Source of the DNA: a virus
Lineage: Duplodnaviria; Heunggongvirae; Uroviricota; Caudoviricetes
Direction: 5' to 3' (one strand)
Length of the DNA stretch: 28,026 nucleotides
Virus record (IMG/VR): IMGVR_UViG_2636415477_000009
Coordinates: 1 to 28,026 of that record
Part shown: one piece after another, positions 1 to 15,639 of the stretch
Position numbering within the stretch: the stretch's first letter is position 1
How the letters are laid out: each line of letters opens with the position of its first letter
The notes under the pieces: model-generated
Told to the model about the DNA's origin: nothing
Seen by the model: only the letters and a program-made list of their open reading frames with translations
Databases searched by the model: none
Program-made: the position numbers and the translations under genes

Positions 1-1215
1 TTATTTTTCAACCTCTGACAGGGGTAAGTAATGAGATGTCTGTAATGTCAAACTCTCTATCTCAAAGGAAATGTTGCTGATATTTTGACCTGCAAATTGC
101 GGATGCCACTCAGCGCCAGGGAATAACATTTCCGCAGAAGTAGCAACTATAGGGTCAATAGCATTAAGATAATGTAACTTATCAGGTGCGCTGTGTAACA
201 GTAACCACTGCAACTCCACTGAAGGATTTGTAAAATGTTCTAATAAATGAAAGTTATTATGTAGTACGCTTAGTAAAAAACTGGTTTCGTATACTTCCGT
301 TACATATTTCCACCCCTGATATTCAGGTGTATTTTCATAAACAATACCCATACCTTCACAATCACTATGTCGAACTGCTTGTGGTGATAATAGTTGCAAA
401 AGAGACAAAACATCGTCCGCATATTTTTTAACTGGATGACGATTTTGCTTACCTTTTATTTGATCAATTTCAAGTGAATCACCAACAACATTGAGAGCAA
501 TAGTAACATGAGGAATATTATTATTATCACGCAAACTGAATAACCGTAATTTATGTTGCTCAATTTGATTTGCATAATACTCACCATAACCACCGGTAAG
601 ATTTTTTCGATCATCAAACTGGCCTACGCAATGTTGCATATGCCATGATTCATAAGCCATTTCACGACGAAGGTTCGAATGACTGGCATCAAACTCAACA
701 ATTTTTCCGTCTGGCACATCAAGTATTGACTTTACAGTATTTTGTTCACTCGGCTGCCACCCTTTCTCGCGTCGTTGAAGCATCTTTTCATGCTCTTCTT
801 CACGCATTCTGAACGCAACGTAGCAGGTTATGCGCTGTAGTTTTGATTCCAGACGGGTACCACATTTCCTGGAAAGAAATTCCACCAACTCCCGTTCTTT
901 GGTTAATATTTGTTGATGATCGGTTTCGATATAATAAAGTGTCGCAGTTGATACTGAGGCAGTATTAAACTTCGATACCAGCCATTCCGGGATTACATCA
1001 TCATTTTTATTAAACAGTGAATATTCTGCAAGCGAGTTAATTTGTTGCACCATTGGAAAGTCACTAATTAGCCATCGATAAAAATGGTTGAGTAACCATT
1101 TTTGGATGGTCTCATTATCCTGGCGAAACAGACTTCTTTGCAAAATTGCTGTTTTTACTTCCGGGGCATTAATTACATCCCTTGCATTATAATTCTGGTG
1201 AATATTTCCAGTCAT
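1..1215 (-). CDS. Hypothetical 404-aa protein, AT-rich, likely horizontally acquired; function unassigned
   Basis: Complete ORF (ATG at 1215, stop at 1..3). Markedly AT-rich compared with neighbouring yegQ. Lies where K-12 has yegP, as I recall. No Walker A or other motif I can assign with confidence. Confidence 0.55.
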   Translation of the reverse strand: MTGNIHQNYNARDVINAPEVKTAILQRSLFRQDNETIQKWLLNHFYRWLISDFPMVQQINSLAEYSLFNKNDDVIPEWLVSKFNTASVSTATLYYIETDHQQILTKERELVEFLSRKCGTRLESKLQRITCYVAFRMREEEHEKMLQRREKGWQPSEQNTVKSILDVPDGKIVEFDASHSNLRREMAYESWHMQHCVGQFDDRKNLTGGYGEYYANQIEQHKLRLFSLRDNNNIPHVTIALNVVGDSLEIDQIKGKQNRHPVKKYADDVLSLLQLLSPQAVRHSDCEGMGIVYENTPEYQGWKYVTEVYETSFLLSVLHNNFHLLEHFTNPSVELQWLLLHSAPDKLHYLNAIDPIVATSAEMLFPGAEWHPQFAGQNISNISFEIESLTLQTSHYLPLSEVEK

Positions 1216-1702
1216 AACATCCGCCCGTGTTTATTATATCACTCAAAGCAATAATTGTTGACTATAGATTTTTTATCTAAATCAGCATGGTTGCAGGTAC
1301 ATACTCAAGTAAGCCACTCAAGAAAATAACGTAAACTCAATAGTGGCAGCGTCACAAACTTTGGAAATTATGTCTTATATTTGCAGTTTATTTTAGTGAA
1401 TAATTGAGATAAATGACATTATTTTACATCCTCAATAATTCAGGCTGTAAGAGGACGGCAAATACATTCATAATTATCAGGGGATGAACATTCAGGAAAG
1501 TAGTCAGTATCGTCAACTTTTTCTTTTATCACTACATGAAGATTTCGTGTAGATACTCCCATCTCTGCCACTTCTCCCCTCACATTTACACTGGAGCTAA
1601 ACCCGCCGATTGCGCTACAATGCCCGCCCTTAAAGTGGGGGCACTCCCCTAACCGCTTCATCAGGTGAAGCGGCTCTGACCTGTCATCAGAACGAGAGAA
1701 TT

Positions 1703-3064
1703 ATGTTTAAACCGGAACTCCTTTCCCCGGCGGGAACGCTGAAAAATATGCGTTACGCTTTCGCTTATGGCGCAGATGCTGTTTATGCGGGCCAGCCGCG
1801 TTACTCCCTGCGTGTGCGCAACAACGAATTCAACCACGAAAATCTTCAGCTCGGCATCAATGAAGCCCACGCGCTGGGGAAAAAGTTTTATGTCGTGGTC
1901 AACATTGCACCGCACAACGCCAAGCTGAAAACCTTTATCCGTGACCTGAAACCGGTGGTGGAAATGGGGCCGGATGCGCTGATTATGTCCGATCCAGGGC
2001 TGATTATGCTGGTGCGTGAGCACTTCCCGGAAATGCCAATCCACCTCTCGGTACAGGCTAACGCCGTAAACTGGGCGACGGTAAAATTCTGGCAGCAAAT
2101 GGGTCTGACCCGCGTGATCCTCTCTCGCGAACTGTCACTGGAAGAGATTGAAGAGATCCGCAATCAGGTACCGGATATGGAGATCGAAATCTTCGTTCAC
2201 GGCGCGCTGTGCATGGCCTACTCCGGTCGCTGCCTGCTCTCTGGCTATATCAACAAGCGCGACCCGAACCAGGGCACCTGCACCAACGCCTGCCGCTGGG
2301 AATATAACGTCCAGGAAGGGAAAGAAGATGACGTTGGCAACATCGTACACAAGTACGAGCCGATTCCGGTGCAAAATGTTGAGCCGACGCTGGGTATCGG
2401 CGCACCAACCGACAAAGTGTTTATGATCGAAGAAGCCCAGCGTCCGGGCGAGTATATGACCGCGTTTGAAGATGAGCACGGCACTTACATCATGAACTCG
2501 AAAGATCTGCGCGCCATCGCCCATGTTGAACGCCTGACCAAAATGGGCGTGCATTCGCTGAAAATCGAAGGCCGTACCAAATCTTTCTACTATTGCGCAC
2601 GCACCGCGCAGGTTTACCGTAAAGCTATCGATGACGCCGCTGCGGGCAAACCGTTCGATACCAGCCTGCTGGAAACGCTGGAAGGTCTGGCGCATCGTGG
2701 CTATACCGAAGGTTTCCTGCGTCGTCATACCCACGACGATTATCAGAACTACGAATACGGTTATTCGGTTTCTGACCGCCAGCAGTTTGTTGGTGAGTTT
2801 ACCGGTGAGCGCAAGGGGGACCTCGCGGCGGTAGCGGTGAAAAATAAATTCTCCGTTGGCGACAGCCTTGAGCTGATGACGCCGCAAGGCAACATTAACT
2901 TTACCCTTGAGCATATGGAAAACGCCAAAGGTGAAGCTATGCCGGTCGCACCAGGCGATGGTTATACTGTGTGGCTCCCGGTGCCGCAGGATCTTGAGCT
3001 AAATTACGCGCTGCTGATGCGTAATTTCTCCGGGGAAACCACGCGTAACCCCCACGGTAAGTGA
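1703..3064 (+). CDS. yegQ: Peptidase U32-family protein YegQ/RlhA (23S rRNA hydroxycytidine synthesis factor)
   Basis: 453-aa ORF whose sequence (MFKPELLSPAGTLKNMRYAFAYGADAVYAGQPRYSLRV...) matches my recollection of E. coli YegQ; conserved Cys-rich segment CLLSGYINKRDPNQGTCTNACRW. Confidence 0.9.
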   Translation: MFKPELLSPAGTLKNMRYAFAYGADAVYAGQPRYSLRVRNNEFNHENLQLGINEAHALGKKFYVVVNIAPHNAKLKTFIRDLKPVVEMGPDALIMSDPGLIMLVREHFPEMPIHLSVQANAVNWATVKFWQQMGLTRVILSRELSLEEIEEIRNQVPDMEIEIFVHGALCMAYSGRCLLSGYINKRDPNQGTCTNACRWEYNVQEGKEDDVGNIVHKYEPIPVQNVEPTLGIGAPTDKVFMIEEAQRPGEYMTAFEDEHGTYIMNSKDLRAIAHVERLTKMGVHSLKIEGRTKSFYYCARTAQVYRKAIDDAAAGKPFDTSLLETLEGLAHRGYTEGFLRRHTHDDYQNYEYGYSVSDRQQFVGEFTGERKGDLAAVAVKNKFSVGDSLELMTPQGNINFTLEHMENAKGEAMPVAPGDGYTVWLPVPQDLELNYALLMRNFSGETTRNPHGK

Positions 3065-3148
3065 TTAATTTCGATTATTTTTCCCGGATGGAAAATTCTT
3101 AGAAACCGATCACATACAGCTGCATTTATTAAGGTTATCATCCGTTTC

Positions 3149-3235
3149 GCTGAAAAACATAACCCATAAAATGCTAGCTGTACCAGGAACCACCTCCTTA
3201 GCCTGTGTAATCTCCCTTACACGGGCTTATTTTTT
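3149..3235 (+). ncRNA. cyaR: CyaR (RyeE) small regulatory RNA; its 3' terminator carries the prophage attachment core
   Basis: Sequence gctgaaaaacataacccataaaatgctagctgtaccaggaaccacctccttagcctgtgtaatctcccttacacgggcttatttttt matches the E. coli CyaR sequence as I remember it; ends in a hairpin plus U-run. Confidence 0.85.
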
Positions 3236-3236
3236 A
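3209..3236. repeat. Prophage attachment core, left copy (attL), 28 bp, inside the CyaR terminator
   Basis: aatctcccttacacgggcttatttttta at 3209..3236 is identical to 27354..27381; the two copies bracket the P2-like gene set. Confidence 0.8.
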
Positions 3237-3300
3237 CGCGTAATTCAATGAAATAAAAGGATTTATTTCTGGTCACGTCCACACATTGACCACATCGACA

Positions 3301-3329
3301 AAAAAGCCCCTCGACTGAGGGGCTTTCTG
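3301..3329 (-). terminator. Rho-independent terminator downstream of ogr
   Basis: Plus-strand aaaaaagcccctcgactgaggggctttct; on the minus strand this is a GC stem (gcccctc/gaggggc) followed by a T-run immediately 3' of the ogr stop. Confidence 0.6.
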
Positions 3330-3336
3330 TTTGTAA

Positions 3337-3555
3337 TTACATCCACATAATTTGCTGCCCTGACGGCAACGGGTGCGGCCTTACTGCGTGGACTTCTCCC
3401 GGCTTCACGATGTATCGCTGTACCGACTCATAAGTGATGAACGTGGCGCTGCAATTCACGTTCTGACACTGGTGATAACGCTCTTTTGTCGTGTCAGTGA
3501 TATAGCGACTTGTACGCGCATGTGCGGCATGCTGGCATAAAGGACAATGAAACAT
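3337..3555 (-). CDS. ogr: Ogr late-gene transcriptional activator (zinc finger)
   Basis: 72-aa product MFHCPLCQHAAHARTSRYITDTTKERYHQCQNVNCSATFITYESVQRYIV... matches P2 Ogr; Cys4 zinc finger. The tracked ORF extends upstream, but the conserved protein starts at the internal ATG at 3555. Confidence 0.9.
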   Translation of the reverse strand: MFHCPLCQHAAHARTSRYITDTTKERYHQCQNVNCSATFITYESVQRYIVKPGEVHAVRPHPLPSGQQIMWM

Positions 3556-3636
3556 CGCGAGCACCTCTTCCGGTTTTGTTGATGGTGCCATTTTAGTTAA
3601 TTTATCCTTACAAAACAAACAGATAAATAAAACACA

Positions 3637-3727
3637 TCATTCTTCATCTTCTGTTTCGTACTCCACATCAGAAAGCCTGACCTCAAGCTCCAAGGACGTC
3701 GTGAAGCCGCTATTATTCAGAAAATGT
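3637..3727 (-). pseudogene. Possible 3' remnant of tail gene D, cut by the IS element
   Basis: Minus-strand frame reads ...HGNTQVTHFLNNSGFTTSLELEVRLSDVEYETEDEE-stop, abutting the IS end. P2 has D immediately upstream of ogr and K-12 has a D fragment (yegZ) next to ogrK. Sequence identity to D not verified. Confidence 0.35.
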
Positions 3728-3818
3728 GTCACCTGCGTATTACCGTGAAGGAGATCGGTGAGTAACATCGATGGAGATCGGTTCGTGTCACTTTCACAGA
3801 ACCGTTTTTAAATTACCT

Positions 3819-4568
3819 TCACTGATCTCCTTCGGTCAACGGAGATTGTATTTTCCGCATTGATTCTCCTTTAAGTTCGATCTTGATACTGCCATGAACC
3901 AGTCGATCTAGGATGGCATCCGCATGTGTGGAGTCTCCGATCATTTTGTACCAGTTTTCCACCGGCAACTGGCTCACTACGATGATTGAGCCTCGTTGGT
4001 ACATCAGATCCACTATTTCCAGCAGGTCGCTACGCTGTTCTGATGAGAGAGGTTCCAGCCCCCAGTCATCCAGAAGCAGCAGATCGCTATTATTCAGCCT
4101 GGTCAAAAGTTTGCTGTATCTTCCATCAGCATGCCCCTGATAGCACTGTTCCATCAGCGCTTTAAGGCGATAATAGTAGACCTTGTATCCCTGTCGGCAG
4201 GCATTATGACCAAGTGCACATGCCAGGAACGTTTTACCGCTGCCGGTGGCCCCGGTCAGTAAAATATTTTGTTTCAGGGTTAACCAGTTTCCCTGACTGA
4301 GTGAACGGATGAGGGCCCTGTCCAGCCCTCTATTGTTACGATAATCCAGCTTTGATAACTCAGCATTAAGTCTGAACCGTGCATGTTTGATCAGACGCTC
4401 TGCCTTCCTGTTTTCACGGCAGGTTAGTTCTTCTGCTGTCAGTAATGACAGGCGTTCTTCGAAGCCCAGCTCCTGGTATGTGCCCGGCTGAGCAAGTTGC
4501 TTTTTAAGCGCATCACGGAAGCCGGTGAGTTTAAGTGCGGTCAGTTGTTCGTAAAGATGATTCATCAT
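3819..4568 (-). CDS. istB: IS21-family helper ATPase IstB
   Basis: 249 aa; Walker A LLTGATGSGKTFLACALG and Walker B LLLLDDWG; overall resemblance to IS21 IstB. Confidence 0.85.
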   Translation of the reverse strand: MMNHLYEQLTALKLTGFRDALKKQLAQPGTYQELGFEERLSLLTAEELTCRENRKAERLIKHARFRLNAELSKLDYRNNRGLDRALIRSLSQGNWLTLKQNILLTGATGSGKTFLACALGHNACRQGYKVYYYRLKALMEQCYQGHADGRYSKLLTRLNNSDLLLLDDWGLEPLSSEQRSDLLEIVDLMYQRGSIIVVSQLPVENWYKMIGDSTHADAILDRLVHGSIKIELKGESMRKIQSPLTEGDQ

Positions 4569-4579
4569 TGGATCCCGTA

Positions 4580-6121
4580 TCAGTGGTAATACTCACTGCC
4601 GCGTACGTTTTCGTGTTCCATCGTGGATAACAGATCTGGTTTTGGATCCTGAACAGGTTGTTTATCCAGACCTTTTTCCAGGATCGATTTAATACCTGAC
4701 AGACGCCATACCTTTGTTTTCAGAGCTCTTGCACATGCTGCATTAAGTCTGGCTTTACTGTATTTTTTATGAAGGTTCAGGAGTCCAAGGCAGAAGCGAT
4801 AGCTTTGTTCCGGATGTGGACGAGAGTTCAGTATATGAAGCACATAACTATGAGTTTCACTGCCTATGTGCCCCGCCCATTCCAGAAGACGCTCTGGCGT
4901 CCAGGTGGCATGCTGTCGATGAGCTTCAGGCATGTGCTCGTTGCGGGTACTGTAGCCATAAGTACGCTTGCGCGGGTGCACAGCAACCTCCTGCCCCTGA
5001 TTGAAGAGTCTTACCAGTTCTCCGGAGATCCATGCTTCCAGTTGCTGGCCTAACAGCGAACATGGAACCGAGTAGTAATGTTTGTCGATTTCCACGTGGT
5101 AATCGGCATGAACTCTGACTTTCTTCACCAGGGTGTAACTGTAACTGGCTTCAGGAAGAGGCTTCAGTGCGGGTTTATCAAGCTGGATGAAGAGTTCTGC
5201 ACGTGAATAACCCAACTTCTGCATTATTTTGTTATTCAGTCTTTCCAGCAACTCCCGAATGCGCTGATTAAGCGATGCAAGGCTGTAGAAGATCTCATGC
5301 CTGATTCGGGCCATGATCCAGCGTTCAACAACCTGAACGCCAACTTCAGCTTTGGCTTTATCTTTCGGTTTACGTGGCCGCGCAGGCAAAACTGCGACAT
5401 TATAATGCTCAAGCATCTGCTGGTAGGTAGGGTTAACGTCAGGATCATACTTACATGCCCTGGATGTGGCGCTTTTCAGATTGTCCGGAACAACAAGTTC
5501 AGGAACGCCACCCAACCACTGGAAGCAGCGAACATGACTCATCACCCAGTCTTCAAGCTGCTGAGACCAGGTGGCCTCTGCCCATGTGTAACTTGATGCC
5601 CCGAGAACAGCTACGATGACCTGAGCAGTTCTTATTTCTCCGGTCTCAGGGTCGGTAACGCCAACGGTAGGTCCACAGTAATCAACGAAAAGTTTTTCGC
5701 CAGCTTTATGTACCTGACGCATTGATGGTGAAGTGGTTTTGAGCCATTCACGGTACATCCGGCAGTAATGGTTATAGCTGTAAAAACCGCCTGGATTACG
5801 CTCACAGTATTCTTCCCAGAGTAGCTGCAGCGTCACGCATTTATTACGCAGTTCCCGGTGTACTGTAGCCCAGTCAGGCAGAGAGTGCTTCTTCATCTTA
5901 ACCTGGGTCTGAAGGAACGCATGTTTTAGTTTTGTATCATCCCATCCTGTAGGTAAGGGCCACTGCTTTATGCCAAGTTGAGCCGCCCGATTAGCATATC
6001 TGGATACAACGGAAGGGGAGATTGCAAGACTACGACCAATTTGTCGATGGCTGAGTCCAACACCGTATTTAAGCCTAAGAATTTCTTTAAGTTTTCTCAT
6101 AGAAATTGGAACTGTTGGCAT
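4580..6121 (-). CDS. istA: IS21-family transposase IstA
   Basis: 513 aa; N-terminal HTH (LSHRQIGRSLAISPSVVSRY) and an integrase-core-like middle region; sits 12 bp upstream of istB on the same strand. Confidence 0.8.
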   Translation of the reverse strand: MPTVPISMRKLKEILRLKYGVGLSHRQIGRSLAISPSVVSRYANRAAQLGIKQWPLPTGWDDTKLKHAFLQTQVKMKKHSLPDWATVHRELRNKCVTLQLLWEEYCERNPGGFYSYNHYCRMYREWLKTTSPSMRQVHKAGEKLFVDYCGPTVGVTDPETGEIRTAQVIVAVLGASSYTWAEATWSQQLEDWVMSHVRCFQWLGGVPELVVPDNLKSATSRACKYDPDVNPTYQQMLEHYNVAVLPARPRKPKDKAKAEVGVQVVERWIMARIRHEIFYSLASLNQRIRELLERLNNKIMQKLGYSRAELFIQLDKPALKPLPEASYSYTLVKKVRVHADYHVEIDKHYYSVPCSLLGQQLEAWISGELVRLFNQGQEVAVHPRKRTYGYSTRNEHMPEAHRQHATWTPERLLEWAGHIGSETHSYVLHILNSRPHPEQSYRFCLGLLNLHKKYSKARLNAACARALKTKVWRLSGIKSILEKGLDKQPVQDPKPDLLSTMEHENVRGSEYYH

Positions 6122-6235
6122 AGGTATCCTTTACCGGAATGGCAAAAGATACAGATCAACACACCTGTGAAGTTCCAATAACATTGATGGAGATCACTGA
6201 ATAACAAAATGAGTCAAAAGTGATCTCCATCGATG

Positions 6236-6946
6236 TTATTCAGCGATCTGTTCAAATGTTATTACCCGATCTCGATGGAAGTTATTGAGTGATCTCCTTT
6301 CATGAAAATACGCATGTGCAGTGTATTTCCCGTTAGCAAGGTCATATGCTGCTTTTACCGCTTTTGGTGTTGCGGCGAGTGTTTCAGACGTGCTGTTGGT
6401 CGCACTGCTTAACTGAGTAAAACCTTTTGCGGTCAAAGAAGCGTCCGGGTGACGTCGTGACTGTTCATGTTCTGCAATTTTGTCATCAACGTAATCCTGC
6501 GTTGCCATCACCGTTGTGGTGTCAATAGTCAGCTCCACTGAGGCCACACTGCTGACGATGATGACCATGCGGCAGGTCTGCGAACGCCCTGAGCCTTCGG
6601 CAAGGGCAGGTTTATAACTTTCGGCCATGTTCGCCACGGCAATTAACGTTCCCGCATCATCGTACAGGCCAAGCTCTCGCATCCAGAAACCGCCCACCTC
6701 CGGCGGAATAACCAGCTCTGCGATAATATAATTACTGTTTCGTTTGTCCTGGCTGATTTTGTTCAGCGCATGTCGCCAGACTTCATGGATAAGTCCGGTC
6801 TGTCCGGCATCCGGGACAGGCAATTTACCACCGCCATCCCCGACGGCCATCGTGGTAATGTTGACCTTCCGCCCTCCCGGTGCGGTTGCCGCTGCCAGCT
6901 TTGCTGCACCGGCAGTGGTGATAACGGTTCTGAATTTTGTGCTCAT
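6236..6946 (-). pseudogene. Truncated tail fibre gene H (N-terminal ~210 codons) reading into the IS end
   Basis: N-terminus MSTKFRTVITTAGAAKLAAATAPGGRKVNITTMAVGDGGGKLPVPDAGQTGLIHEVWRHALNK... matches P2 gpH, which is about 669 aa. After ...DLANGKYTA the frame runs into IS inverted-repeat sequence and stops at 6236. Confidence 0.75.
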
Positions 6947-6956
6947 TATTCCTCAC

Positions 6957-7487
6957 TTATCCGGGGTAAACCGTAATTACATCGCCGTCGTAAGCCACAC
7001 CACCGGCGAACAGGTAGCCGGGAATGTCCCGGGTAATGTTCAGGCCAATAAGGTGACGGCTTGCAGGTTTGGCATCAGCAATCAGCCGTTCCATTTCCTG
7101 ATACATTGCCTCTGTGATGCCACTTTCCAGTACACCAATATCAAGCCGGAAGGTGCCGGGCGGGTCACTGTTTTCCCACCACTCCGTCACGTTGATGAGA
7201 TAGCCGAGCGGCTCCACCACACGCCGGATTGCACCTATAGTGCCTTTATGACAGTGGATGAAATACGCATCGCGGATAACGGCGCGTTTTGTCGCTTCCG
7301 GCCACTTCTCATCCCACCTGTCGACCGAAAACGCCCACGCCAGCCACGGCAGCAAATTTGCCGGACAGGTATCCGGGTTCCACAGCTCACGAATACTGAC
7401 CGGCGTTTTTTCAATTTCCGCACAGGCTTTTGCGGCGGAGACCTCAAGCGGTGATGAGCCGGTCGGCAGCAGTCGCGAATCACTCAT
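6957..7487 (-). CDS. Baseplate/tail protein gpI
   Basis: 176 aa; matches P2 gpI by sequence and by position between H and J. Confidence 0.8.
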   Translation of the reverse strand: MSDSRLLPTGSSPLEVSAAKACAEIEKTPVSIRELWNPDTCPANLLPWLAWAFSVDRWDEKWPEATKRAVIRDAYFIHCHKGTIGAIRRVVEPLGYLINVTEWWENSDPPGTFRLDIGVLESGITEAMYQEMERLIADAKPASRHLIGLNITRDIPGYLFAGGVAYDGDVITVYPG

Positions 7488-8388
7488 CCGAGCCTCCGGT
7501 CACAACGCGGTATTCGGTACAGAAAGACGCCTGCGTACTGTTGAGCACGATGTCGGCCAGCGGTGCAGCCAGTTCGACACGCTGCACGCCTTCCACATGC
7601 AAAGCGGCATAAATGGCAGACAGACGGATGTCGCGCCCCAGCCGGTGCTGTGCCGTGATATATGCTTCCAGTTTTTTCACGGCGGCCGCGCGGATGGGTT
7701 CGCTTTCGGGACCAGGGTAAAGGTAAAGCGTGGCGTTTATCTGGTATTCAACAATGGCGGCAGACTGCACGGTCACGCGGTCGGCCACCGGTCTGACGTC
7801 CTCGCCATTAAGGGCGTTACGCACCACGGCCAGCAGGTCTTCGGATGCGACGCCGTTATTTTCACGTGACAGCACGGAGATGGTGACGCAGGCCGGAGAC
7901 GGACTGGTGACAGAGATATCCGCGACGCGCCCGTCGGCACTGCGACCATGATACTGATAGGCACCCACCGACCCGGCGACGCTTAAACCCTCAAACGCCT
8001 GCTGAATACGCAGACGATAATCGGTGTCAGACTCCATCACTGCCGGTGTCGGCGGGATGGTCGAATCATCTGCCGGGGTGATAATCAGGCGCGTGGTGTT
8101 GTAATTGGCACCAATCACATCAAGGTCATTACCGGCGGCACAGGCCAGCATTACCGCCCGTGCGGCCTCATTCACACGCTGACGCCAGATAAGCTCACGA
8201 TAAGCATTTTCCTCCAGCAGTTTGACGAGAGGCTCAGATTCCAGCGTCAGGGTACGGGCGACCGCCTCCTGCTGGTCTTCCGGGTAAAGGGAAATCAGTG
8301 TCGCCTTGCGTTCGGCGAGAATGGTTTCAAAGTCCAGCTCCTCGACCACATCCGGTGCGGGTAGCTGGTTCAGGTCGATAATCGGCAT
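7480..8388 (-). CDS. Baseplate assembly protein gpJ
   Basis: 302 aa; MPIIDLNQLPAPDVVEELDFETILAERKATLISLYPEDQQ... matches P2 gpJ. Confidence 0.85.
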   Translation of the reverse strand: MPIIDLNQLPAPDVVEELDFETILAERKATLISLYPEDQQEAVARTLTLESEPLVKLLEENAYRELIWRQRVNEAARAVMLACAAGNDLDVIGANYNTTRLIITPADDSTIPPTPAVMESDTDYRLRIQQAFEGLSVAGSVGAYQYHGRSADGRVADISVTSPSPACVTISVLSRENNGVASEDLLAVVRNALNGEDVRPVADRVTVQSAAIVEYQINATLYLYPGPESEPIRAAAVKKLEAYITAQHRLGRDIRLSAIYAALHVEGVQRVELAAPLADIVLNSTQASFCTEYRVVTGGSDE

Positions 8389-8392
8389 GGTT

Positions 8393-8740
8393 TCAACTCA
8401 CAGGGATGGTTAACGAAAGTGGCTGGCCGGTGTCGTTGTGCTGGCCGGTTAACGTGACCGTCATTCGCCCGTCAAAACTGCGCTCAGTGGTGACGGATGA
8501 CAGGGTGACGCGGGGTTCCCATTTCAGCACTGCCATGTAACAGGCGACCTTAATCTGCAACTCAAGCGCCGGAGTCTGCGGCTGGTCAATCATTGACGCC
8601 AGCAACGAGCCGTAATCACGACGCATCACCCGTGAGCCGACCGGTGTGCGCAGGATATCGCCGATACTCTGGCTGATATGCTCAAGGTCAGTGACCGTCA
8701 GGCCATCACTGCGATTCATTCCGAGATAACGCGCTGTCAT
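8393..8740 (-). CDS. Baseplate wedge protein gpW (gp25-like)
   Basis: 115 aa; matches P2 gpW; sits between V and J. Confidence 0.85.
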   Translation of the reverse strand: MTARYLGMNRSDGLTVTDLEHISQSIGDILRTPVGSRVMRRDYGSLLASMIDQPQTPALELQIKVACYMAVLKWEPRVTLSSVTTERSFDGRMTVTLTGQHNDTGQPLSLTIPVS

Positions 8741-9372
8741 AAAGGACTCCCGGTTGTGCCGCCGCTGTCGCCGGGGTGTTTGTGGGTATGCAGTACCTTA
8801 CCGTTTGATGAGAGTTCACCGCCGGTGTGTTCAATGTTGCCGCGCATCGTCCCGCCCTTCTGCACTTCCAGCGTGCCGGTAGTCAGTTTGTTAGTGCAGA
8901 CCACTTCCGGTGTGTCCAGGGTGACACGGGTTGACGCTTTCACCGTGACCACCGGTACCGTGGCAGTAACAGAATCAGAAGCCGTCACGCTGGCCGTTTT
9001 AATTCCGCTTACCGTGAGTGCACTGGTTTCGGGTTCATACTCAATCACCGCCCCGTCAGGGAAACGGATATGCAGGGCATCCGCCGACGCAGACGGCGGA
9101 GGGTTATCACCGGAATAAATCCCCGGCAGAACGAACGCCGTGTCGAGTTCACCGCCCACGGCCAGAATCAGCACCTGTTCCCCCACGGAAGGTGCCCACC
9201 ATGTGCGCGAACGCCCGGCGCGATGGGTCAGCCACTGAAGCCAGTCGGTGCACATGCCGCCGGTCTGCACACGGCAGCGACCGGCGTTAAGGTCGGTTTC
9301 GACGATAATGCCGGTGCGGATCATGTTGCGCAGTGCGCGCGCGAGTTCCTGAATATTTGCGAGAGTGTTCAT
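8737..9372 (-). CDS. Baseplate spike protein gpV
   Basis: 211 aa; MNTLANIQELARALRNMIRTGIIVETDLNAGRCRVQTGGM... matches P2 gpV. Confidence 0.85.
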   Translation of the reverse strand: MNTLANIQELARALRNMIRTGIIVETDLNAGRCRVQTGGMCTDWLQWLTHRAGRSRTWWAPSVGEQVLILAVGGELDTAFVLPGIYSGDNPPPSASADALHIRFPDGAVIEYEPETSALTVSGIKTASVTASDSVTATVPVVTVKASTRVTLDTPEVVCTNKLTTGTLEVQKGGTMRGNIEHTGGELSSNGKVLHTHKHPGDSGGTTGSPL

Positions 9373-9438
9373 AACGGGAAGGATGCCGCCGGGTCATACC
9401 GGCGGCAATGTGACGATGAGGTGTCGGGAATGGCACAA

Positions 9439-9891
9439 CTAACGGTCGAGGTGAGCCAGGATAATCTCTTCAATCATCTGCACATCCTCACCGGTAAAGC
9501 CGAGCAGAGGACGCGCCGGATAATCAATTTTCTTACCGTCTTTCCGGTTTTCTTCCGACAGACCGAACTGATGCACACTGGCGATTTTCGGTGACTTCCC
9601 GCCGTAAAATTCCATTGATGCCTGTTCCGGGCTGGCGCGGATATGCAAAAAACGACTGGTGATAAGTTTCGCAAACATTTTTCGCTTAACGCGACCGGTC
9701 TTTTTTCTGGCGCTCTGCTGCTGGCGTGGCGCGTAGGGGGTGCCGTCCGGGGCTTTCTGTGCCATCACACGATGCTGCTGACTCTGCCGCAGACGTTTCG
9801 CCAGTTCGGCACTCAGTCGCCGACGCCCTGATGGTGACAGCGACTCAATCAGTCCGGTCAGCCGGTCTTCAAAACGCTTAAACTCATTCAT
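9439..9891 (-). CDS. Tail completion protein gpS
   Basis: 150 aa; matches P2 gpS; in the R-S pair upstream of V. Confidence 0.8.
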   Translation of the reverse strand: MNEFKRFEDRLTGLIESLSPSGRRRLSAELAKRLRQSQQHRVMAQKAPDGTPYAPRQQQSARKKTGRVKRKMFAKLITSRFLHIRASPEQASMEFYGGKSPKIASVHQFGLSEENRKDGKKIDYPARPLLGFTGEDVQMIEEIILAHLDR

Positions 9892-10351
9892 CCCACTTAC
9901 TCACCAGTTCACCATTGATATAAAGCTCCATCGGGCGGGTGACCGGCTCCGGCGGCGGTGGTTCCGGGATATTCTTCACATGCAGCGCGCCGTCAACCTC
10001 ACTGACCAGCGTGCGCTCGGTCAGCATCAGGCTGATGCTGATATCAAAGCTGCTGTCATTGTTGATGTCCGCATAAAACGTGAAGCCCTTTTTCTGGCCT
10101 TCGTCGGTGGTCATGATGTCGGGCTGATTTTCCCGCAGCCACGCCAGCACCGGCACGATGAGCAGGTCAAAATCACCGGTAAAGTCGGTCACAATCACAT
10201 TGAGCGTGTAACGCTTTTCGAATGACAGCGACGTCGCCAGTGTGGAGGCAATACTCCCGTTATCCACGAATATCCGCAGCATCTCTGGACTGGTTTTCAG
10301 CACCGTGACGGCATCAGTCAGCGCCCTGCGCAGGCTGTCGGGTTTGAGCAT
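9884..10351 (-). CDS. Tail completion protein gpR
   Basis: 155 aa; matches P2 gpR. Confidence 0.8.
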   Translation of the reverse strand: MLKPDSLRRALTDAVTVLKTSPEMLRIFVDNGSIASTLATSLSFEKRYTLNVIVTDFTGDFDLLIVPVLAWLRENQPDIMTTDEGQKKGFTFYADINNDSSFDISISLMLTERTLVSEVDGALHVKNIPEPPPPEPVTRPMELYINGELVSKWDE

Positions 10352-10604
10352 CGTTTTCGTCCTGACAGTGTTTAATCATTTTTACCTGGCTGGCACAGCG
10401 TGCCAGCGCGTTCTCAAGCTGCCGGATATCGGCACTTAAATCGCCGTTCGTCTCCGGGTCACTGCCCGGCATCGGGCAAAGACTCACTTTCGGGCAGGCG
10501 TTGGCGACAATCACTGGCGTCAGTGCAGGCGGGGCGCTGGTGCAACCGGCGCACAGCATCAGGCAGGTCAGCACCGTACCAGCGGCGAAAATCTTCGTTT
10601 TCAT
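10314..10604 (-). CDS. lysC: LysC, Rz1-like outer-membrane spanin lipoprotein, nested out of frame in lysB
   Basis: Internal start gives MKTKIFAAGTVLTCLMLCAGC... with a lipobox (LCAGC) signal peptide; lies in an alternative frame of the lysB 3' region, as in P2. Confidence 0.65.
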   Translation of the reverse strand: MKTKIFAAGTVLTCLMLCAGCTSAPPALTPVIVANACPKVSLCPMPGSDPETNGDLSADIRQLENALARCASQVKMIKHCQDENDAQTRQPAQGAD

Positions 10605-10884
10605 TGAGTAATCTCGTGATGGTTTTCTCGCGCTGTGCTTCACGCTTCGCGGCGTTCTCCAGTTCCTGACGCAGAGCCACCTGCGCCAGCTCGTTTTTGT
10701 CTGCCCTGGTGATGGCAACATGAAGCTGATTTTTCAGCATGGTGATGGTCGTCTGCTGTTCACTGGCGACGTTGTTCGCCCTGTCCAGCAAGGCGCGCAG
10801 GCTGGCGTTTTCATGCTTCGCCAGAAACAGACCGGCCACCGCCAGTGATAACAACACAACCAGCACAATCATCAGCTTTGACAT
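10459..10884 (-). CDS. lysB: LysB, Rz-like inner-membrane spanin
   Basis: 141 aa; N-terminal transmembrane helix (MSKLMIVLVVLLSLAVAGLFLA) followed by a coiled-coil-like region; position matches P2 lysB. Confidence 0.8.
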   Translation of the reverse strand: MSKLMIVLVVLLSLAVAGLFLAKHENASLRALLDRANNVASEQQTTITMLKNQLHVAITRADKNELAQVALRQELENAAKREAQREKTITRLLNENEDFRRWYGADLPDAVRRLHQRPACTDASDCRQRLPESESLPDAGQ

Positions 10885-11297
10885 GGTTCCCGCCCCTCAA
10901 AACGCTGACGACAGGCCGTGCGTATCAACCGGAAGAACACCGACGCCACGAGGTAAATCAGCGCGGTAAAAATCCACCCGGCAGCGACCAGCGAGATAAA
11001 CGTCGCCACCATCACCACCAGAGCCGCCGCCCGTCTGCGCCACGGCACCGGCTGCAAAAACAGCGACGCGACAATCTTCACGGCCAGCGATTCCGGCGGC
11101 AGCTCCCGCCCGTAGCGTTCCAGCACATACTCAGTGGCATACACGCCGACACCACCGGCAACCACACAGATAACCGTCGCCAGAATCGCCCAGGTGGCGA
11201 CAAAACTGACGGCCACGCTCTGCGGGTAAATCAGGGACAGTGCCGGCATCAGCGCCAGCGACACGTTCAGCATCAGTGAAAGGGATAATTTCTTCAT
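10872..11297 (-). CDS. lysA: LysA, membrane lysis-timing protein
   Basis: 141 aa; several hydrophobic segments; position between K and lysB as in P2. Confidence 0.75.
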   Translation of the reverse strand: MKKLSLSLMLNVSLALMPALSLIYPQSVAVSFVATWAILATVICVVAGGVGVYATEYVLERYGRELPPESLAVKIVASLFLQPVPWRRRAAALVVMVATFISLVAAGWIFTALIYLVASVFFRLIRTACRQRFEGREPCQS

Positions 11298-11311
11298 GGT
11301 GTTTACTCCGT

Positions 11312-11809
11312 TTAAGCCGGTACGCCGCCAGCGGTACGCCAGACGGTGACCAGTTTTTCCAGTGAATGCTCACGCTGACCGTAACCGGCTCCCGGCAGGG
11401 ACGCCCAGATATTGCGACAGCGTGAAATGGCGCGCTCAATGCGTCCCGCCCGGATGTCATCCAGTGCACCGCGTTCGCGGATCAACTGAATGGCGAGTCT
11501 GTCCTGTGACAACGGACTGAAATCCGGCAGGGCAAGCTGTTTGCGGTAGTGCGGCCAGAACAGGTAAAGCTGCTGATAGCGACCGGAGGCCGTGGATTTT
11601 TCACCGCGACGGTTAAACACCTTCGCCGGTCGGCCATGCGCGAACGGGTGGTCACTGTAGTCGGTGAAAATTTCCGGCTTCCCGTCCAGTCCGGTGACTA
11701 TCACGTCATAGCCCCGGTTTTTCGTCAGCGGATGATTCGCCGTCCCTTCGGACACGGCCAGCATGTCGAGAAAGGCAGCGATATTCTGATGCGTGTTAAT
11801 TACCGGCAT
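11312..11809 (-). CDS. Endolysin gpK (lysozyme-like)
   Basis: 165 aa; MPVINTHQNIAAFLDMLAVSEGT... matches P2 gpK. Confidence 0.85.
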   Translation of the reverse strand: MPVINTHQNIAAFLDMLAVSEGTANHPLTKNRGYDVIVTGLDGKPEIFTDYSDHPFAHGRPAKVFNRRGEKSTASGRYQQLYLFWPHYRKQLALPDFSPLSQDRLAIQLIRERGALDDIRAGRIERAISRCRNIWASLPGAGYGQREHSLEKLVTVWRTAGGVPA

Positions 11810-12090
11810 TACTGTTTCCCCCTGCCCTTAAAACGGCGCTGAATGGCAATCTCAATCACCTGATAACCGGCGATACCCAGCATGGAGCCGATGCCGCACA
11901 CCGCAGGCAGTGACAGGTCAGGGAACTGCACCAGAACAACACCGGCAACCATCGAGACAAAACCACCGAGCAACATGCGCCCGATAAACAGACGCGGGGT
12001 GATGGGTTCACCACCGGCAAGCACCTTGCCGACAACAATCAGCACTCCAATCATAAAAAGCGACAGGACGCTTTTTTCTTCTGCTGTCAT
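11809..12090 (-). CDS. Holin gpY
   Basis: 93 aa; hydrophobic helices and a charged C-terminus (RRFKGRGKQ); directly upstream of the endolysin. Confidence 0.8.
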   Translation of the reverse strand: MTAEEKSVLSLFMIGVLIVVGKVLAGGEPITPRLFIGRMLLGGFVSMVAGVVLVQFPDLSLPAVCGIGSMLGIAGYQVIEIAIQRRFKGRGKQ

Positions 12091-12093
12091 GCG

Positions 12094-12297
12094 TTACTCC
12101 CACAGATTGACAGTTTCAGCCACGGGCGCGGTCTGAACGTCGGGCAGTTCGACGGCGGTGCCGTGCGGCAGCACCGCGCCCAGTTCAGCCAGTCCCGGAT
12201 TTGCGGCGAGCACGGTCTCAACCACGCCCTCAGTGCGCCCGTAATACCGGACACAAATGGCGTCGAGCGTGTCGCCCTGTAGCGCAAAGGTCTTCAT
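12094..12297 (-). CDS. Tail protein gpX
   Basis: 67 aa from the internal start MKTFALQGDTLDAICVRYYG...; its ATG overlaps the L stop (ATGA) at 12295..12299. The tracked ORF extends upstream to 12366. Confidence 0.7.
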   Translation of the reverse strand: MKTFALQGDTLDAICVRYYGRTEGVVETVLAANPGLAELGAVLPHGTAVELPDVQTAPVAETVNLWE

Positions 12298-12806
12298 CAG
12301 ATTTGACTCACTATGCAGCGCGGCTTGTCCTGGATACGCGCCACTGCCCAGCGCATATCCCGCCACAGCTCATCAATGGTGCTGTCAATGCTGTCGGCCT
12401 TCTTGTCGCCTTTCGCACTGGCATCCACACCGCGATAACGTTCATAAAGCGACGCGGTCGCCATCGCACACACGGCGCGCTCGTAGTAAAAAACTTTGAT
12501 GCTTTCACCGTCGATGTCGTCCGCCGGGACGTCCGCCAGACGCGTAAAACCGGCGGCAATTTTCTGTTCGCGGTACTCGTACAGCTCCGCATTCGTCTCC
12601 GCCATGCCTGACTTGATGGCCTCACGCAGACGGGCGGGGGCGACGGTCTGCTCAAGGCGCATACGTTCCCGGACGCGCTTCGGGTCGATATCGGGAAAAA
12701 AGAACGTGTTTTTAATCACCGGCTCGTCGCCTGCCGGTTGCGGGATGACCACCGTACCCTCACCGGACACGGGAGCCTCCTTTCGCGGAATAATCAGCGT
12801 CATCAT
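12297..12806 (-). CDS. Head completion protein gpL
   Basis: About 169 aa from the internal start MMTLIIPRKEAPVSGEGTVV...; matches P2 gpL. Confidence 0.8.
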   Translation of the reverse strand: MMTLIIPRKEAPVSGEGTVVIPQPAGDEPVIKNTFFFPDIDPKRVRERMRLEQTVAPARLREAIKSGMAETNAELYEYREQKIAAGFTRLADVPADDIDGESIKVFYYERAVCAMATASLYERYRGVDASAKGDKKADSIDSTIDELWRDMRWAVARIQDKPRCIVSQI

Positions 12807-12905
12807 GACTACCTCTGAAAAGTCGGGCGGTGGACGCCGGTGCAGTGTCAGGTGATTCACCCTCACTGACCGGCGTGCCGCCCTGGCGCGGGGCGCATTC
12901 GGTTG

Positions 12906-13649
12906 TTAACTGGCTTTCTTTTTCGGGCGTCCACGTTTTGCCGGTGTCACGCTCCGGATCTTACGCGGGGCGCGGGTGGCCGCTTTGGGCTGCGGCTCCG
13001 GCTTCGGTTTCAGCTCCCGCTCCAGTCGTTCAATCTCTTTTTTGACGCCTGCCTGACAGTCGAGCTGTGTCGCACGTTGCAGGTGAGCCAGCGCACCGGC
13101 GGCATCACCACCGTCACGCAGAAACAGACCGGTGATTTTGTGCAGCTTTGCGCGCACTTCATCAGGCATGTCAGCCGTGGCGGTCAGTTCAAGGGTCTCC
13201 GTCAGCAGGCGGGTATCCACAGACTCACCGGCAGCGTGGGCACGCATGGCCGCAAGCGCTACCTCCTCGGTGAACATGTACGGCGGGGTACGGCGGTGTT
13301 TACCCGGCATGGTCAGACCGTACTTCAGGGCATAACGGGCAATCTCCAGCGCACCGGCAATATCGCCGGTATCCAGACGCCACAGCATGACCGTCATCAG
13401 AATGTCATCCTGTGCACCTTTGCCCTGCTCCAGCACGCCGTTCACCCACGGCAACCAGAACGGCAGCAGTTCGCGTTTTTTCGCGGCCTTCAGCTCTTTT
13501 GAATAAATCGCTTTCAGTGTGCGCTGGTCTGCGGCGAGCTTAACCAGCATCTGCTCATAGACAGTTGCATGTCGCAGCGGGGCGGCTTCCCGCTGCGCGG
13601 TCATCGCTGCCGAGACCCGCATCATGTGGCGCTGTGCGGGACTCGTCAT
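12906..13649 (-). CDS. Terminase small/endonuclease subunit gpM
   Basis: 247 aa; matches P2 gpM; basic C-terminal tail (KRGRPKKKAS). Confidence 0.85.
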   Translation of the reverse strand: MTSPAQRHMMRVSAAMTAQREAAPLRHATVYEQMLVKLAADQRTLKAIYSKELKAAKKRELLPFWLPWVNGVLEQGKGAQDDILMTVMLWRLDTGDIAGALEIARYALKYGLTMPGKHRRTPPYMFTEEVALAAMRAHAAGESVDTRLLTETLELTATADMPDEVRAKLHKITGLFLRDGGDAAGALAHLQRATQLDCQAGVKKEIERLERELKPKPEPQPKAATRAPRKIRSVTPAKRGRPKKKAS

Positions 13650-13652
13650 CGG

Positions 13653-14726
13653 TTACGCTCCCGGCTCTGCGGTCGCTTTAGCCAGTGTGGAGAAATCACC
13701 GACCTTAATTTTTTCCACCAGACAACCGGCGGCGTAGTCTTCCACCACGTAATCAATGTTCATTGACTCGTAGTTCTCCACGCGGTCGAGTTTCGGGTTT
13801 TCCTCAATCACGCGGCGATGGCTGTCATCCATGTAGTAGATGGACAGGTTTTCCAGCTTTGTGATGAGCATCGCATCCGCCGGGAAGTACGGGACGCGTA
13901 CCGCCGGCAGGTTACCGATGCGTTTCTGGCTGATGATGACGTCAGCGGCCAGCATTTCGCTGTTGTCCTGCTCCTTGTTGACGATGGGAAAATACTTGTC
14001 CGCCAGTAGCTGACGTCCCACAATCACCACAAGGTCAGGGTCTTCCTGATACCACGGCTCAATCAGGTTGTTGGTCGCATCCATCACCAGTGCGTCAAGG
14101 CTGGCATAATCACCGCCCTTACCCACGCGGATAACCTCAGAGGTGGTGTGCCCTTCCTCGTCAGTGACCTTGCTCATCACGCGCGCCGGGGCTTCATTGC
14201 GGTATTTCTGCAGCCAGCCGACCGCCACATCCTGCAGCATCGGATTGCTGCTGCGGTCAGAGGTTTCGGCACGCCTCACGCCGTTAAAACCGGCCATGAT
14301 TAAATCAAGGGACTGGCGTTTGATAATGGCGTTACGGACACGGAGCTGGAAATCCTGATAACGCGCCCACAGGTCCAGCGTTTTGTAGCGGATATAAAAA
14401 TCGAAGTTAATCTGGTCGCATTCGTACTTGTTTGACGCCAGCTTCGAGAAGTCCTTCGGCTGACGCTCGGTGCCACCGGCGGTGTCGGTGGTGCTGGCGA
14501 TGGAGCCGGTGACACCGATGCCAATTTTTTCCCCTTTCATTTCGCTGACCGGCACAATGTTGATGCGGGTCAGAAAGTCAGAGGACTCCTGCATGGTGTT
14601 CATCAGGGTCTGGGTGACCGACGGTTCAACGGTGAATTTTTTCGACACATCACCGGCGTCGATGCCGTTCAGTTCGGCAACACGGGACAGGTAGGCATTA
14701 AATTTAAAGCGGGTTTCCTGGCGCAT
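13653..14726 (-). CDS. Major capsid protein gpN
   Basis: 357 aa; MRQETRFKFNAYLSRVAELNGIDAGDVSKKFTVEPSVTQ... matches P2 gpN. Confidence 0.9.
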   Translation of the reverse strand: MRQETRFKFNAYLSRVAELNGIDAGDVSKKFTVEPSVTQTLMNTMQESSDFLTRINIVPVSEMKGEKIGIGVTGSIASTTDTAGGTERQPKDFSKLASNKYECDQINFDFYIRYKTLDLWARYQDFQLRVRNAIIKRQSLDLIMAGFNGVRRAETSDRSSNPMLQDVAVGWLQKYRNEAPARVMSKVTDEEGHTTSEVIRVGKGGDYASLDALVMDATNNLIEPWYQEDPDLVVIVGRQLLADKYFPIVNKEQDNSEMLAADVIISQKRIGNLPAVRVPYFPADAMLITKLENLSIYYMDDSHRRVIEENPKLDRVENYESMNIDYVVEDYAAGCLVEKIKVGDFSTLAKATAEPGA

Positions 14727-14784
14727 AGTTTTTCCTGAAATTAAGGGTTAATCGTGAAGGTTTTCCCGGACTGACTGACGCCGG

Positions 14785-15639
14785 TCAGCAGTTCGTCATC
14801 AGGGCGTCACCGCCACCACCGGTGGCCTTGCTGCGGCGCTGCTGGGTCAGACTTTCGGTGTGGTCGAGACTGTTTTTCAGGCGGGTGAATGCCTGGCTGG
14901 TTTCATCCGCCCTGTCAGTCACATCCTGCTTAAGTGCGGAAAAAGCGGTTTCCATCTCAGCGAGGCGCTGCTCAGTGGCGCTCAGTTTTTCCTGCACATG
15001 TTCAGCAACAGCGGTCACCGCTTCATGCACGTCATTCAGACGGGCGTCATCGCTGGCCTGTTTGCGGCCAAAAATGGACTTCACCTTTTCGGTCAGGGCG
15101 GTGAACACGGTTTCAGGCAGGTCTTCAAATTCCAGCTCAACGGGCGTTGCCACTGAAATCAGGTTTTCAGGGCTTAATTTGAAGCGGTTCAGGGGGTTGT
15201 GTTTTGCCGTGCGGCAGAATTCCAGGTATTCCGTGCCGAGGCTTGCCGGGTCATCGGTGACGGCCAGACCCACCAGATAACATTTGCCGGTGTTGGCAAA
15301 GTTCGGCTGAATTTCCATTGAGGTGTAGACCTTCTGCGCGGCCTTGTTCATCGCGATAAGGTCATCGGTCGGGGTGATTTTCGCAAACAGCGCCCATTTG
15401 CCTTTCAGCGCCGAATCATCGTCAATCTTTTCGGCCTTCAGTTCGACCACATCGCCATAACGCTTAAAAATACCGTCAGGCAGGATGCCGCGCAGATGTT
15501 CCAGGTTAATGCGGCAACCATAGACTCGCGGGTCAAAGGTTTCGGCCATTTCCTGAATATCCTGCGCACTGATGACACGCCCGTCACAGGTGTCACCCTC
15601 AACGCCGATACGAAAGAATTTTGAGACTTTTTTTGCCAT
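14785..15639 (-). CDS. Capsid scaffolding protein gpO
   Basis: About 284 aa from the internal start MAKKVSKFFRIGVEGDTCDGR...; matches P2 gpO. The tracked ORF extends to 15705. Confidence 0.85.
   Translation of the reverse strand: MAKKVSKFFRIGVEGDTCDGRVISAQDIQEMAETFDPRVYGCRINLEHLRGILPDGIFKRYGDVVELKAEKIDDDSALKGKWALFAKITPTDDLIAMNKAAQKVYTSMEIQPNFANTGKCYLVGLAVTDDPASLGTEYLEFCRTAKHNPLNRFKLSPENLISVATPVELEFEDLPETVFTALTEKVKSIFGRKQASDDARLNDVHEAVTAVAEHVQEKLSATEQRLAEMETAFSALKQDVTDRADETSQAFTRLKNSLDHTESLTQQRRSKATGGGGDALMTNC

Follow-up and report, generated by a model that had tools for sequence, protein, structure and literature searches.

What kind of gene sits immediately upstream of yegQ at the left edge of a prophage-bearing stretch of Escherichia coli DNA, and to what system does it belong? 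The stretch in question is the IMG/VR virus record IMGVR_UViG_2636415477_000009 (Caudoviricetes), 28,026 nucleotides long and hereafter called the window. It opens with a 404-aa gene on the minus strand, which an earlier note had regarded as an AT-rich orphan, seemingly acquired horizontally and possibly the first gene of an islet continuing beyond the window. The analysis described here indicates that the gene encodes a divergent PcfJ-like protein and that it belongs, together with a DUF1266 gene and a gene for a large helical-repeat protein, to a previously undescribed obligate three-gene module. In E. coli this module lies in a foreign islet, and the PcfJ-like protein may be its catalytic subunit.

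That the 404-aa open reading frame (ORF) is a real gene follows from two observations. An open frame of 404 codons has a chance of about 1e-12 at such a composition (an estimate from base frequencies), and the best homologues of the encoded protein reach E=1e-160. The description of an AT-rich minus-strand gene upstream of yegQ, with its stop at the window edge, was confirmed: GC content is 0.33-0.44 over window positions 1-1500 compared with 0.50-0.56 in yegQ, and the gene itself has about 37% GC. The ORF list also confirmed that window 1-1700 holds no plus-strand ORF of yegP size. No tRNA and no Rfam family was found within window 1-1702.

The PcfJ family (PF14284) takes its name from PcfJ of the Enterococcus faecalis conjugative plasmid pCF10. 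The 404-aa protein matches the Pfam model of this family over aa 141-268, with 26.2 bits against a gathering cut-off of 25 (E=7.5e-6); of its homologues, 38 out of the 48 compared do so at E<0.01, the best at 5.4e-8. On these scores the protein appears to represent a borderline, divergent PcfJ subfamily, most members of which are missed by precomputed Pfam annotation. The label of orphan can be set aside, as 224 database clusters of homologues exist and an exhaustive profile search returned 2196 representative clusters at E<=1e-3, of which 50 reach E<=1e-30. By sequence similarity, PcfJ-like homologues number in the hundreds and are spread across Beta- and Gammaproteobacteria. Identity to the E. 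coli protein is about 60% in Klebsiella, Salmonella, Citrobacter, Buttiauxella and Serratia, about 48% in Burkholderia and Variovorax, and 35-40% in Pseudomonas, Trinickia, Ralstonia, Cupriavidus, Delftia, Acidovorax, Lysobacter and others.

Other resources added little to this assignment. NCBIfam, searched with the 404-aa protein only, gave no match; PHROGs, searched with all four islet proteins described below, gave nothing significant (DUF1266 reached only E >= 0.03, to families of unknown function); and sequence searches of the PDB, run with each protein singly and with a 48-sequence profile, gave nothing meaningful. In a full-text literature search DUF4034 was unmentioned, PcfJ and DUF1266 appeared only in gene lists without an assigned function, and the RefSeq accessions of the four islet proteins were likewise unmentioned.

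The subfamily shares its core domain with the wider PcfJ family but differs from it in being chromosomal, in having additional conserved N- and C-terminal regions, and in its DUF1266 and helical-repeat partners. While the founding PcfJ is carried by a conjugative element, this subfamily was not found in phages or mobilisable plasmids. The PcfJ core also occurs within proteins of 1400-3300 aa (P0241, P0276, P0219 and P0251) that carry an InPase domain or DUF7178 and resemble the polyvalent proteins of conjugative elements and phages. In addition, the wider PcfJ domain is present in target genes of diversity-generating retroelements (DGRs) (PMC5758913).

What accompanies the gene becomes visible to the left of the window. 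Window 1-1700 is 100% identical in complete E. coli chromosomes including ATCC 11775, LF82, NRG 857C, NU14, APEC O18, Nissle and others, and 298 of 5426 complete E. coli genomes carry this segment in full. In the ATCC 11775 locus (L001, where a coordinate equals the window position plus 12000), the 404-aa gene is the promoter-proximal member of a minus-strand cluster of four co-directional genes, followed by a DUF1266 gene, a DUF4034 gene and a gene for a 201-aa protein. The DUF1266 partner matches PF06889 with E=9.5e-19 (68.7 bits against a cut-off of 27), and the DUF4034 partner matches PF13226 with E=1.7e-101 over aa 30-306 of 702. The PcfJ-like and DUF1266 genes overlap in the sequence TAATG, such that the last base of the PcfJ-like TAA is the A of the DUF1266 ATG, which suggests that the two are translationally coupled. 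This overlap and the three co-directional genes that follow bear out the proposal of a multi-gene islet continuing off-window. The idea that yegP had been replaced or lost is corrected, as yegP is kept just beyond the islet in genomes identical over window 1-1700.

The interval between yegP and yegQ can thereby be defined as a small cargo site with four states: empty, occupied by a parDE toxin-antitoxin pair, occupied by the 201-aa gene alone, or occupied by the 201-aa gene together with the triad. The empty state, a 146-bp spacer, is found in the majority of genomes. The 201-aa gene stands alone in E. whittamii and in some E. coli strains, and also in about nine complete genomes with alleles of 80-95%; its alleles differ by 11-20%, compared with about 5% for the flanks. 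Relative to the allele with the 201-aa gene alone, the triad is a 4469-bp insertion at L001 9111-13579, ending at window position 1579; comparison with the parDE allele was also used to place this end. All occupied states share a 30-bp junction that the empty site lacks, and the islet has neither terminal direct or inverted repeats nor an integrase gene. Because the junction holds the last 19 nt of parE, replacement of a parDE cassette by the islet was considered, and it was dropped when the same junction was seen in the 201-aa-alone allele. Membership of the 201-aa gene in the module was also rejected, since other triad loci lack any homologue of it and the site can carry it without the triad; it is an independent Escherichia resident of the yegP-yegQ site.

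The triad has a GC content of 0.40 in E. coli against 0.52 in its flanks, which indicates that the E. coli copy is foreign. The same module has host-like GC in Citrobacter, Buttiauxella and K. oxytoca. With its closest relative only 62% identical, the E. coli copy is, by composition and similarity, derived from an unsampled donor. Horizontal acquisition, as the earlier note had proposed, is supported by this difference and by presence in only 298 of the complete genomes. Neither the homology searches nor the composition pointed to a core housekeeping gene or to host-like GC: the module is conserved, but sporadic and fast-evolving, and its E. coli copy is compositionally foreign.

Outside E. 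coli the three genes recur as a unit. Gene calls and Pfam matches give the order PcfJ-like, DUF1266, DUF4034 in Klebsiella, Salmonella and Burkholderia. In Lysobacter a fused PcfJ::DUF1266 gene precedes DUF4034, and in Pseudomonas a 776-aa protein precedes the PcfJ-like and DUF1266 proteins. Hidden Markov models built from seeds of these five genera were used to score 86 loci from more than 25 genera. DUF1266 is immediately downstream of, or fused to, the PcfJ-like gene in 85 of the 86 (the exception stops at a contig edge), and a large third partner is present in 84. This third partner takes two forms. In 41 loci (type A) it is a DUF4034 protein of about 670-710 aa encoded downstream, while in 43 loci (type B) it is an unrelated tetratricopeptide repeat (TPR) protein of about 780 aa encoded upstream. 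The type B component gives TPR matches, and the type A component gives DUF4034 matches plus weak Sel1/ANAPC3 matches; that the two might be distant homologues was rejected at an hhalign probability of 1.2%.

Junctions within the triad are tight or overlapping and its genes are co-directional. PcfJ::DUF1266 fusions of 600-690 aa occur in six of the scored loci, of both types; in addition, P0196 fuses PcfJ, DUF1266 and TPR, and P0208 fuses PcfJ and TPR. From the gene fusions and the strict synteny we infer that the three proteins act as one complex. The pairwise identities of the three module proteins track each other in every genome pair. Between enterics they are 55-81% identical, compared with 86-97% for BaeR and YegQ, and this pattern does not agree with the species tree. 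The triad of Klebsiella, Salmonella, Citrobacter, Buttiauxella and Superficieibacter lies in the baeR-yegQ interval on the baeR/yegQ strand and without yegP, while in E. coli and an unidentified enteric (L095) it is inverted at this locus. The module is very common in Salmonella enterica, where one cluster has 4991 members and individual sequences lie on at least 1000 contigs. A 294-aa call in Salmonella, which might have been read as a truncated pseudogene, was rejected as such: the ORF is intact at 400 aa, and the shorter version reflects a downstream start call.

What the module does may be approached through the predicted structure of the PcfJ-like protein. The fold of GNAT (acyl-CoA N-acyltransferase) enzymes is built on a mixed beta-sheet, and its cofactor cleft is made by beta4-alpha3 together with beta5. 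In these enzymes, motif A (Q/R-x-x-G-x-G/A) lies at the beta4-alpha3 junction and binds the pyrophosphate of coenzyme A (CoA), and the alpha1-alpha2 region shapes the acceptor site. The GNAT fold is also found in aminoacyl-tRNA transferases, namely FemX, L/F-transferase and ATE1. In the PcfJ-like protein, alignment columns and the DSSP string place an invariant Q252-x-K254-G255-K256-Q257-N258-x-x-P261 between a strand (247-254) and a helix (263-276), within a strand-strand-strand-loop-helix segment spanning aa 223-276. A second invariant cluster (E185, E189, H195-C196 and G208-G-Y-G211) lies in two helices before the sheet.

On this reading, the PcfJ-like protein would be the catalytic subunit, a putative enzyme on a GNAT-like fold. 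Its Q252-x-K-G255-K-Q-N loop, at the beta4-alpha3 junction, would take the position of the CoA-holding motif A, and the E185/E189/H195-C196/GGYG cluster, in alpha1-alpha2, that of the acceptor-site region. DUF1266 is predicted to bind this enzyme and to keep it at the inner membrane, on the cytoplasmic side, by means of a conserved hydrophobic anchor at the DUF1266 N-terminus with basic residues behind it. Such a segment is conserved in unfused DUF1266 partners and absent in the fusions, and the structure model of DUF1266 has one long N-terminal helix at aa 2-53. The helical-repeat protein, whether DUF4034 with Sel1-like repeats or the non-homologous TPR protein, may serve as an exchangeable scaffold or target-recognition subunit, so that the complex would transfer an acyl or related group onto a target chosen by the repeat protein. 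The whole of this explanation, a catalytic PcfJ-like subunit of a conserved three-protein module carried in E. coli on an islet, is assigned a probability of roughly 50%.

Several points weigh against it. The Q252-I-K-G255-K-Q257 sequence keeps the first two signature positions of motif A, but the third is Q and not G/A, and the motif as a whole reads Q-I-K-G-K-Q-N where GNATs have Q/R-x-x-G-x-G/A. Sequence similarity to GNATs is not detectable: the 404-aa protein matches no Acetyltransf (GNAT) family in Pfam at E<=1, and the 48-sequence profile finds no PDB chain at E<=10. The invariant His-Cys dyad is atypical of GNATs, and the spatial clustering of the invariant residues is itself putative. 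The likeness is one of modelled fold and motif position, and not proof of membership. Similarly, the complex is proposed from gene fusion and synteny only, and the membrane anchoring of DUF1266 is predicted only from hydropathy, with the Salmonella and Burkholderia segments falling below the Kyte-Doolittle threshold used. Finally, a conflict system would also be consistent with the fast, tree-incongruent evolution, with the sporadic distribution and with the use of the same site by a toxin-antitoxin cassette.

Comparable loci offer some orientation. In Salmonella Typhi, the SAIDI-1 islet is inserted between STM2135, a protein of about 700 aa, and yegQ (PMC7400221). By position, STM2135 corresponds to the DUF4034 gene. 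The SAIDI-1 locus has the same baeR ... yegQ neighbourhood with AT-rich cargo swapped, as in E. coli; however, the SAIDI-1 genes are proposed orphan immunity genes, and the triad is a conserved resident in Salmonella but variable cargo in E. coli. Deletion of STM2133 in Salmonella Typhimurium gave a swarming value of 1.55 +/- 0.46 of wild type, listed in a table of hypermotile mutants (PMC4219756). STM2133 may, by its position relative to STM2135, be the PcfJ-like gene.

A second parallel is found in E. coli K-12 at 675.5-683.4 kb, where ybeQ (Sel1) is followed by ybeR (DUF1266) overlapping djlB (J domain), and then by ybeT (Sel1), ybeU (DUF1266) overlapping djlC, and hscC. As in the triad, a helical-repeat protein, here of the Sel1 kind, is encoded beside a DUF1266 gene that overlaps a partner gene, and the weak Sel1 matches in the C-terminal halves of some DUF4034 proteins echo the same theme. 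YbeR and YbeU carry the DUF1266 core motif of the triad but lack the N-terminal anchor, and where the triad has a PcfJ-like protein, this cluster couples DUF1266 to a J-domain co-chaperone of the Hsp70 HscC. A literature search on ybeQRTU returned no functional data. By analogy, this layout suggests that DUF1266 repeatedly serves as an adaptor linking a helical-repeat protein to a partner that is an enzyme or a chaperone.

An alternative is that the triad is an undescribed anti-phage or anti-plasmid defence system, in which the repeat protein would sense a component of an invader and the PcfJ-like enzyme would modify a target of the invader or of the host at the membrane. The module is sporadic in E. 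coli, lies in AT-rich foreign DNA at a cargo-swapping site with parDE as an alternative occupant, changes far more rapidly than its flanks and in disagreement with the species tree, and varies in orientation at the baeR-yegQ locus between lineages. A non-homologous repeat protein has taken the place of its third component, as happens with the sensors of many immune systems, and the wider PcfJ domain has a conjugative-plasmid namesake and occurs in giant multidomain proteins with InPase and in DGR targets (PMC5758913). However, a search of PADLOC-DB v2.0.0 with the four proteins returned nothing significant: three of them had no hit at all, and DUF4034 had one against PDC-S32 (E=0.0014, 16.7 bits, no passing stretch). 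The neighbourhood also argues against defence. Among 121 neighbouring proteins (three genes per side, 23 genera), 107 Pfam families are represented, mostly housekeeping (IlvD, GatB, LpxK, an ATP synthase subunit, SRP54, PPK2); no family recurs more than three times, and the one protein matching a defence model is a generic protein kinase. A search of 50,697 phage records did not find the PcfJ-like gene, and its eight matches in 72,556 plasmid records all lie on non-mobilisable replicons of 0.3-1.3 Mb. The host-like GC of the module in Citrobacter, Buttiauxella and K. oxytoca and its abundance in S. enterica point the same way. The second defence-type locus suspected in the earlier note is therefore unsupported, and a defence role for the triad is considered unlikely, although it is the strongest of the alternatives. 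In its fuller form, as a new widespread three-component conflict system whose exchangeable repeat sensor would direct a membrane-tethered GNAT-like enzyme onto an invader or host target, the idea is likewise considered unlikely. An accessory cellular function is weakly favoured over a dedicated anti-phage system.

Two further alternatives start from the genes next door. The module might provide an accessory function linked to envelope stress or efflux and controlled with BaeSR/MdtABCD, for example by modifying a membrane or periplasm-bound protein. In Enterobacteriaceae it always lies directly beside mdtABCD-baeSR; in Burkholderia a resistance-nodulation-division (RND) pump, an outer-membrane factor and a beta-lactamase are encoded upstream; in Lysobacter its neighbours are creD and a histidine kinase/response regulator pair; and the DUF1266 subunit is predicted to be membrane-anchored. 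Across the 23 genera, however, two-component and efflux genes do not recur in the neighbourhood, where no family accounts for more than 3 of the 121 proteins. The E. coli module, moreover, has an AT-rich promoter region of its own and reads towards yegP and baeR, the reverse of the orientation in Klebsiella and Salmonella, such that co-regulation with baeSR is not structurally conserved. This leaves the envelope-stress link improbable. Less credible again is an interbacterial-competition element consisting of orphan immunity or toxin/immunity genes like those of SAIDI-1, an idea that draws on the S. Typhi islet of proposed orphan type VI secretion system (T6SS) and contact-dependent growth inhibition (CDI) immunity genes at the corresponding position, between STM2135 and yegQ (PMC7400221), and on the small secreted protein encoded by the fourth E. 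coli gene. The gene of about 700 aa is, however, treated as a conserved resident outside the S. Typhi islet (PMC7400221), none of the three module proteins has a signal peptide, and no T6SS, CDI or Rhs genes occur among the neighbours in 23 genera. The 201-aa secreted protein, for its part, is an independent resident of the site, found alone in E. whittamii and some E. coli and absent from every other triad locus. Taken together, these observations make a role in competition very improbable.

The positions of the features discussed here, with those of the flanking genes, are collected below. The sigma-70-like site listed is the best found in a promoter scan, with 10 of 12 consensus positions matched, and this figure describes a consensus match only.

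Table 1. Features of the islet and its surroundings, in window coordinates and in those of the E. coli ATCC 11775 locus (L001).
Feature	Window	L001	Strand	Remarks
baeR		7141-7863	+	
yegP		8043-8375	+	about 3.6 kb further left of the window, past three more islet genes
yegP-yegQ cargo site	1580-1610	8410-8471		
Hypothetical secreted protein		8500-9105	-	201 aa; off-window
DUF4034 protein		9166-11274	-	702 aa; helical repeat; off-window
DUF1266 protein		11285-12001	-	238 aa; predicted membrane-anchored; off-window
PcfJ-like coding sequence, module gene 1	1-1215	12001-13215	-	404 aa; ATG start
PcfJ-like protein layout (predicted)				N-terminal helical, aa 1-150; GNAT-like alpha/beta core, about aa 160-305; C-terminal helical, aa 310-365
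PcfJ-like stop codon TAA	1-3		-	reverse complement of the first window bases, read directly
Shine-Dalgarno-like GAGG	12-15			reverse complement
AT-rich upstream region	1216-1579		-	GC 0.33; part of the inserted DNA; likely promoter/5' region of the module
Best sigma-70-like site	1261-1233	13261-13233	-	TCAACA, 17-nt spacer, TATAAT, TG extension
73-aa ORF	1440-1661		-	straddles the boundary of inserted DNA and conserved backbone; probably spurious, not a gene
Junction sequence ACATTTACACTGGAGCTAAACCCGCCGATT	1580-1610		.	from alignments of occupied and empty alleles
Conserved backbone, yegQ (trhP) upstream region	1611-1702		+	identical in empty-site genomes
yegQ/trhP	1703-3064	13703-15064	+	tRNA 5-hydroxyuridine modification; peptidase U32 family; right flank, outside the module
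CyaR/RyeE small RNA gene	3147-3232		+	Rfam RF00112; 100.7 bits, E=3e-20
Ogr-like zinc-finger gene	3337-3618		-	beyond the CyaR/RyeE gene
ISEc12 (IS21 family)	3819-6121		-	istB 3819-4568; istA 4580-6121

To the right of yegQ, the CyaR/RyeE gene lies between yegQ and the Ogr-like gene, at the edge of a P2-like prophage, and the insertion sequence (IS) ISEc12 comes immediately after ogr. The genes beyond ogrK in ATCC 11775 are those for gpD, gpU, tape-measure, gpE, tube and sheath, while those beyond the IS in the window are baseplate and tail-fibre genes. With this difference in gene order, the prophage of the window appears to be rearranged or defective. Among complete E. coli genomes, none matches at least 80% of window 1-9000.

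In summary, three 'domains of unknown function' can be brought together as one module, which is found in E. coli pathotypes, in the probiotic Nissle 1917 and as far afield as Salmonella, Burkholderia and Pseudomonas. If the module serves only an accessory metabolic or regulatory function, the finding would be of moderate, specialist interest. If it were a conflict system, the GNAT-like fold would also be the first clue to mechanism for PcfJ domains in general, among them those of conjugative elements and DGR targets. The predicted fold and its invariant loop offer a concrete biochemical hypothesis for the PcfJ family, and the gene fusions predict a physical complex.

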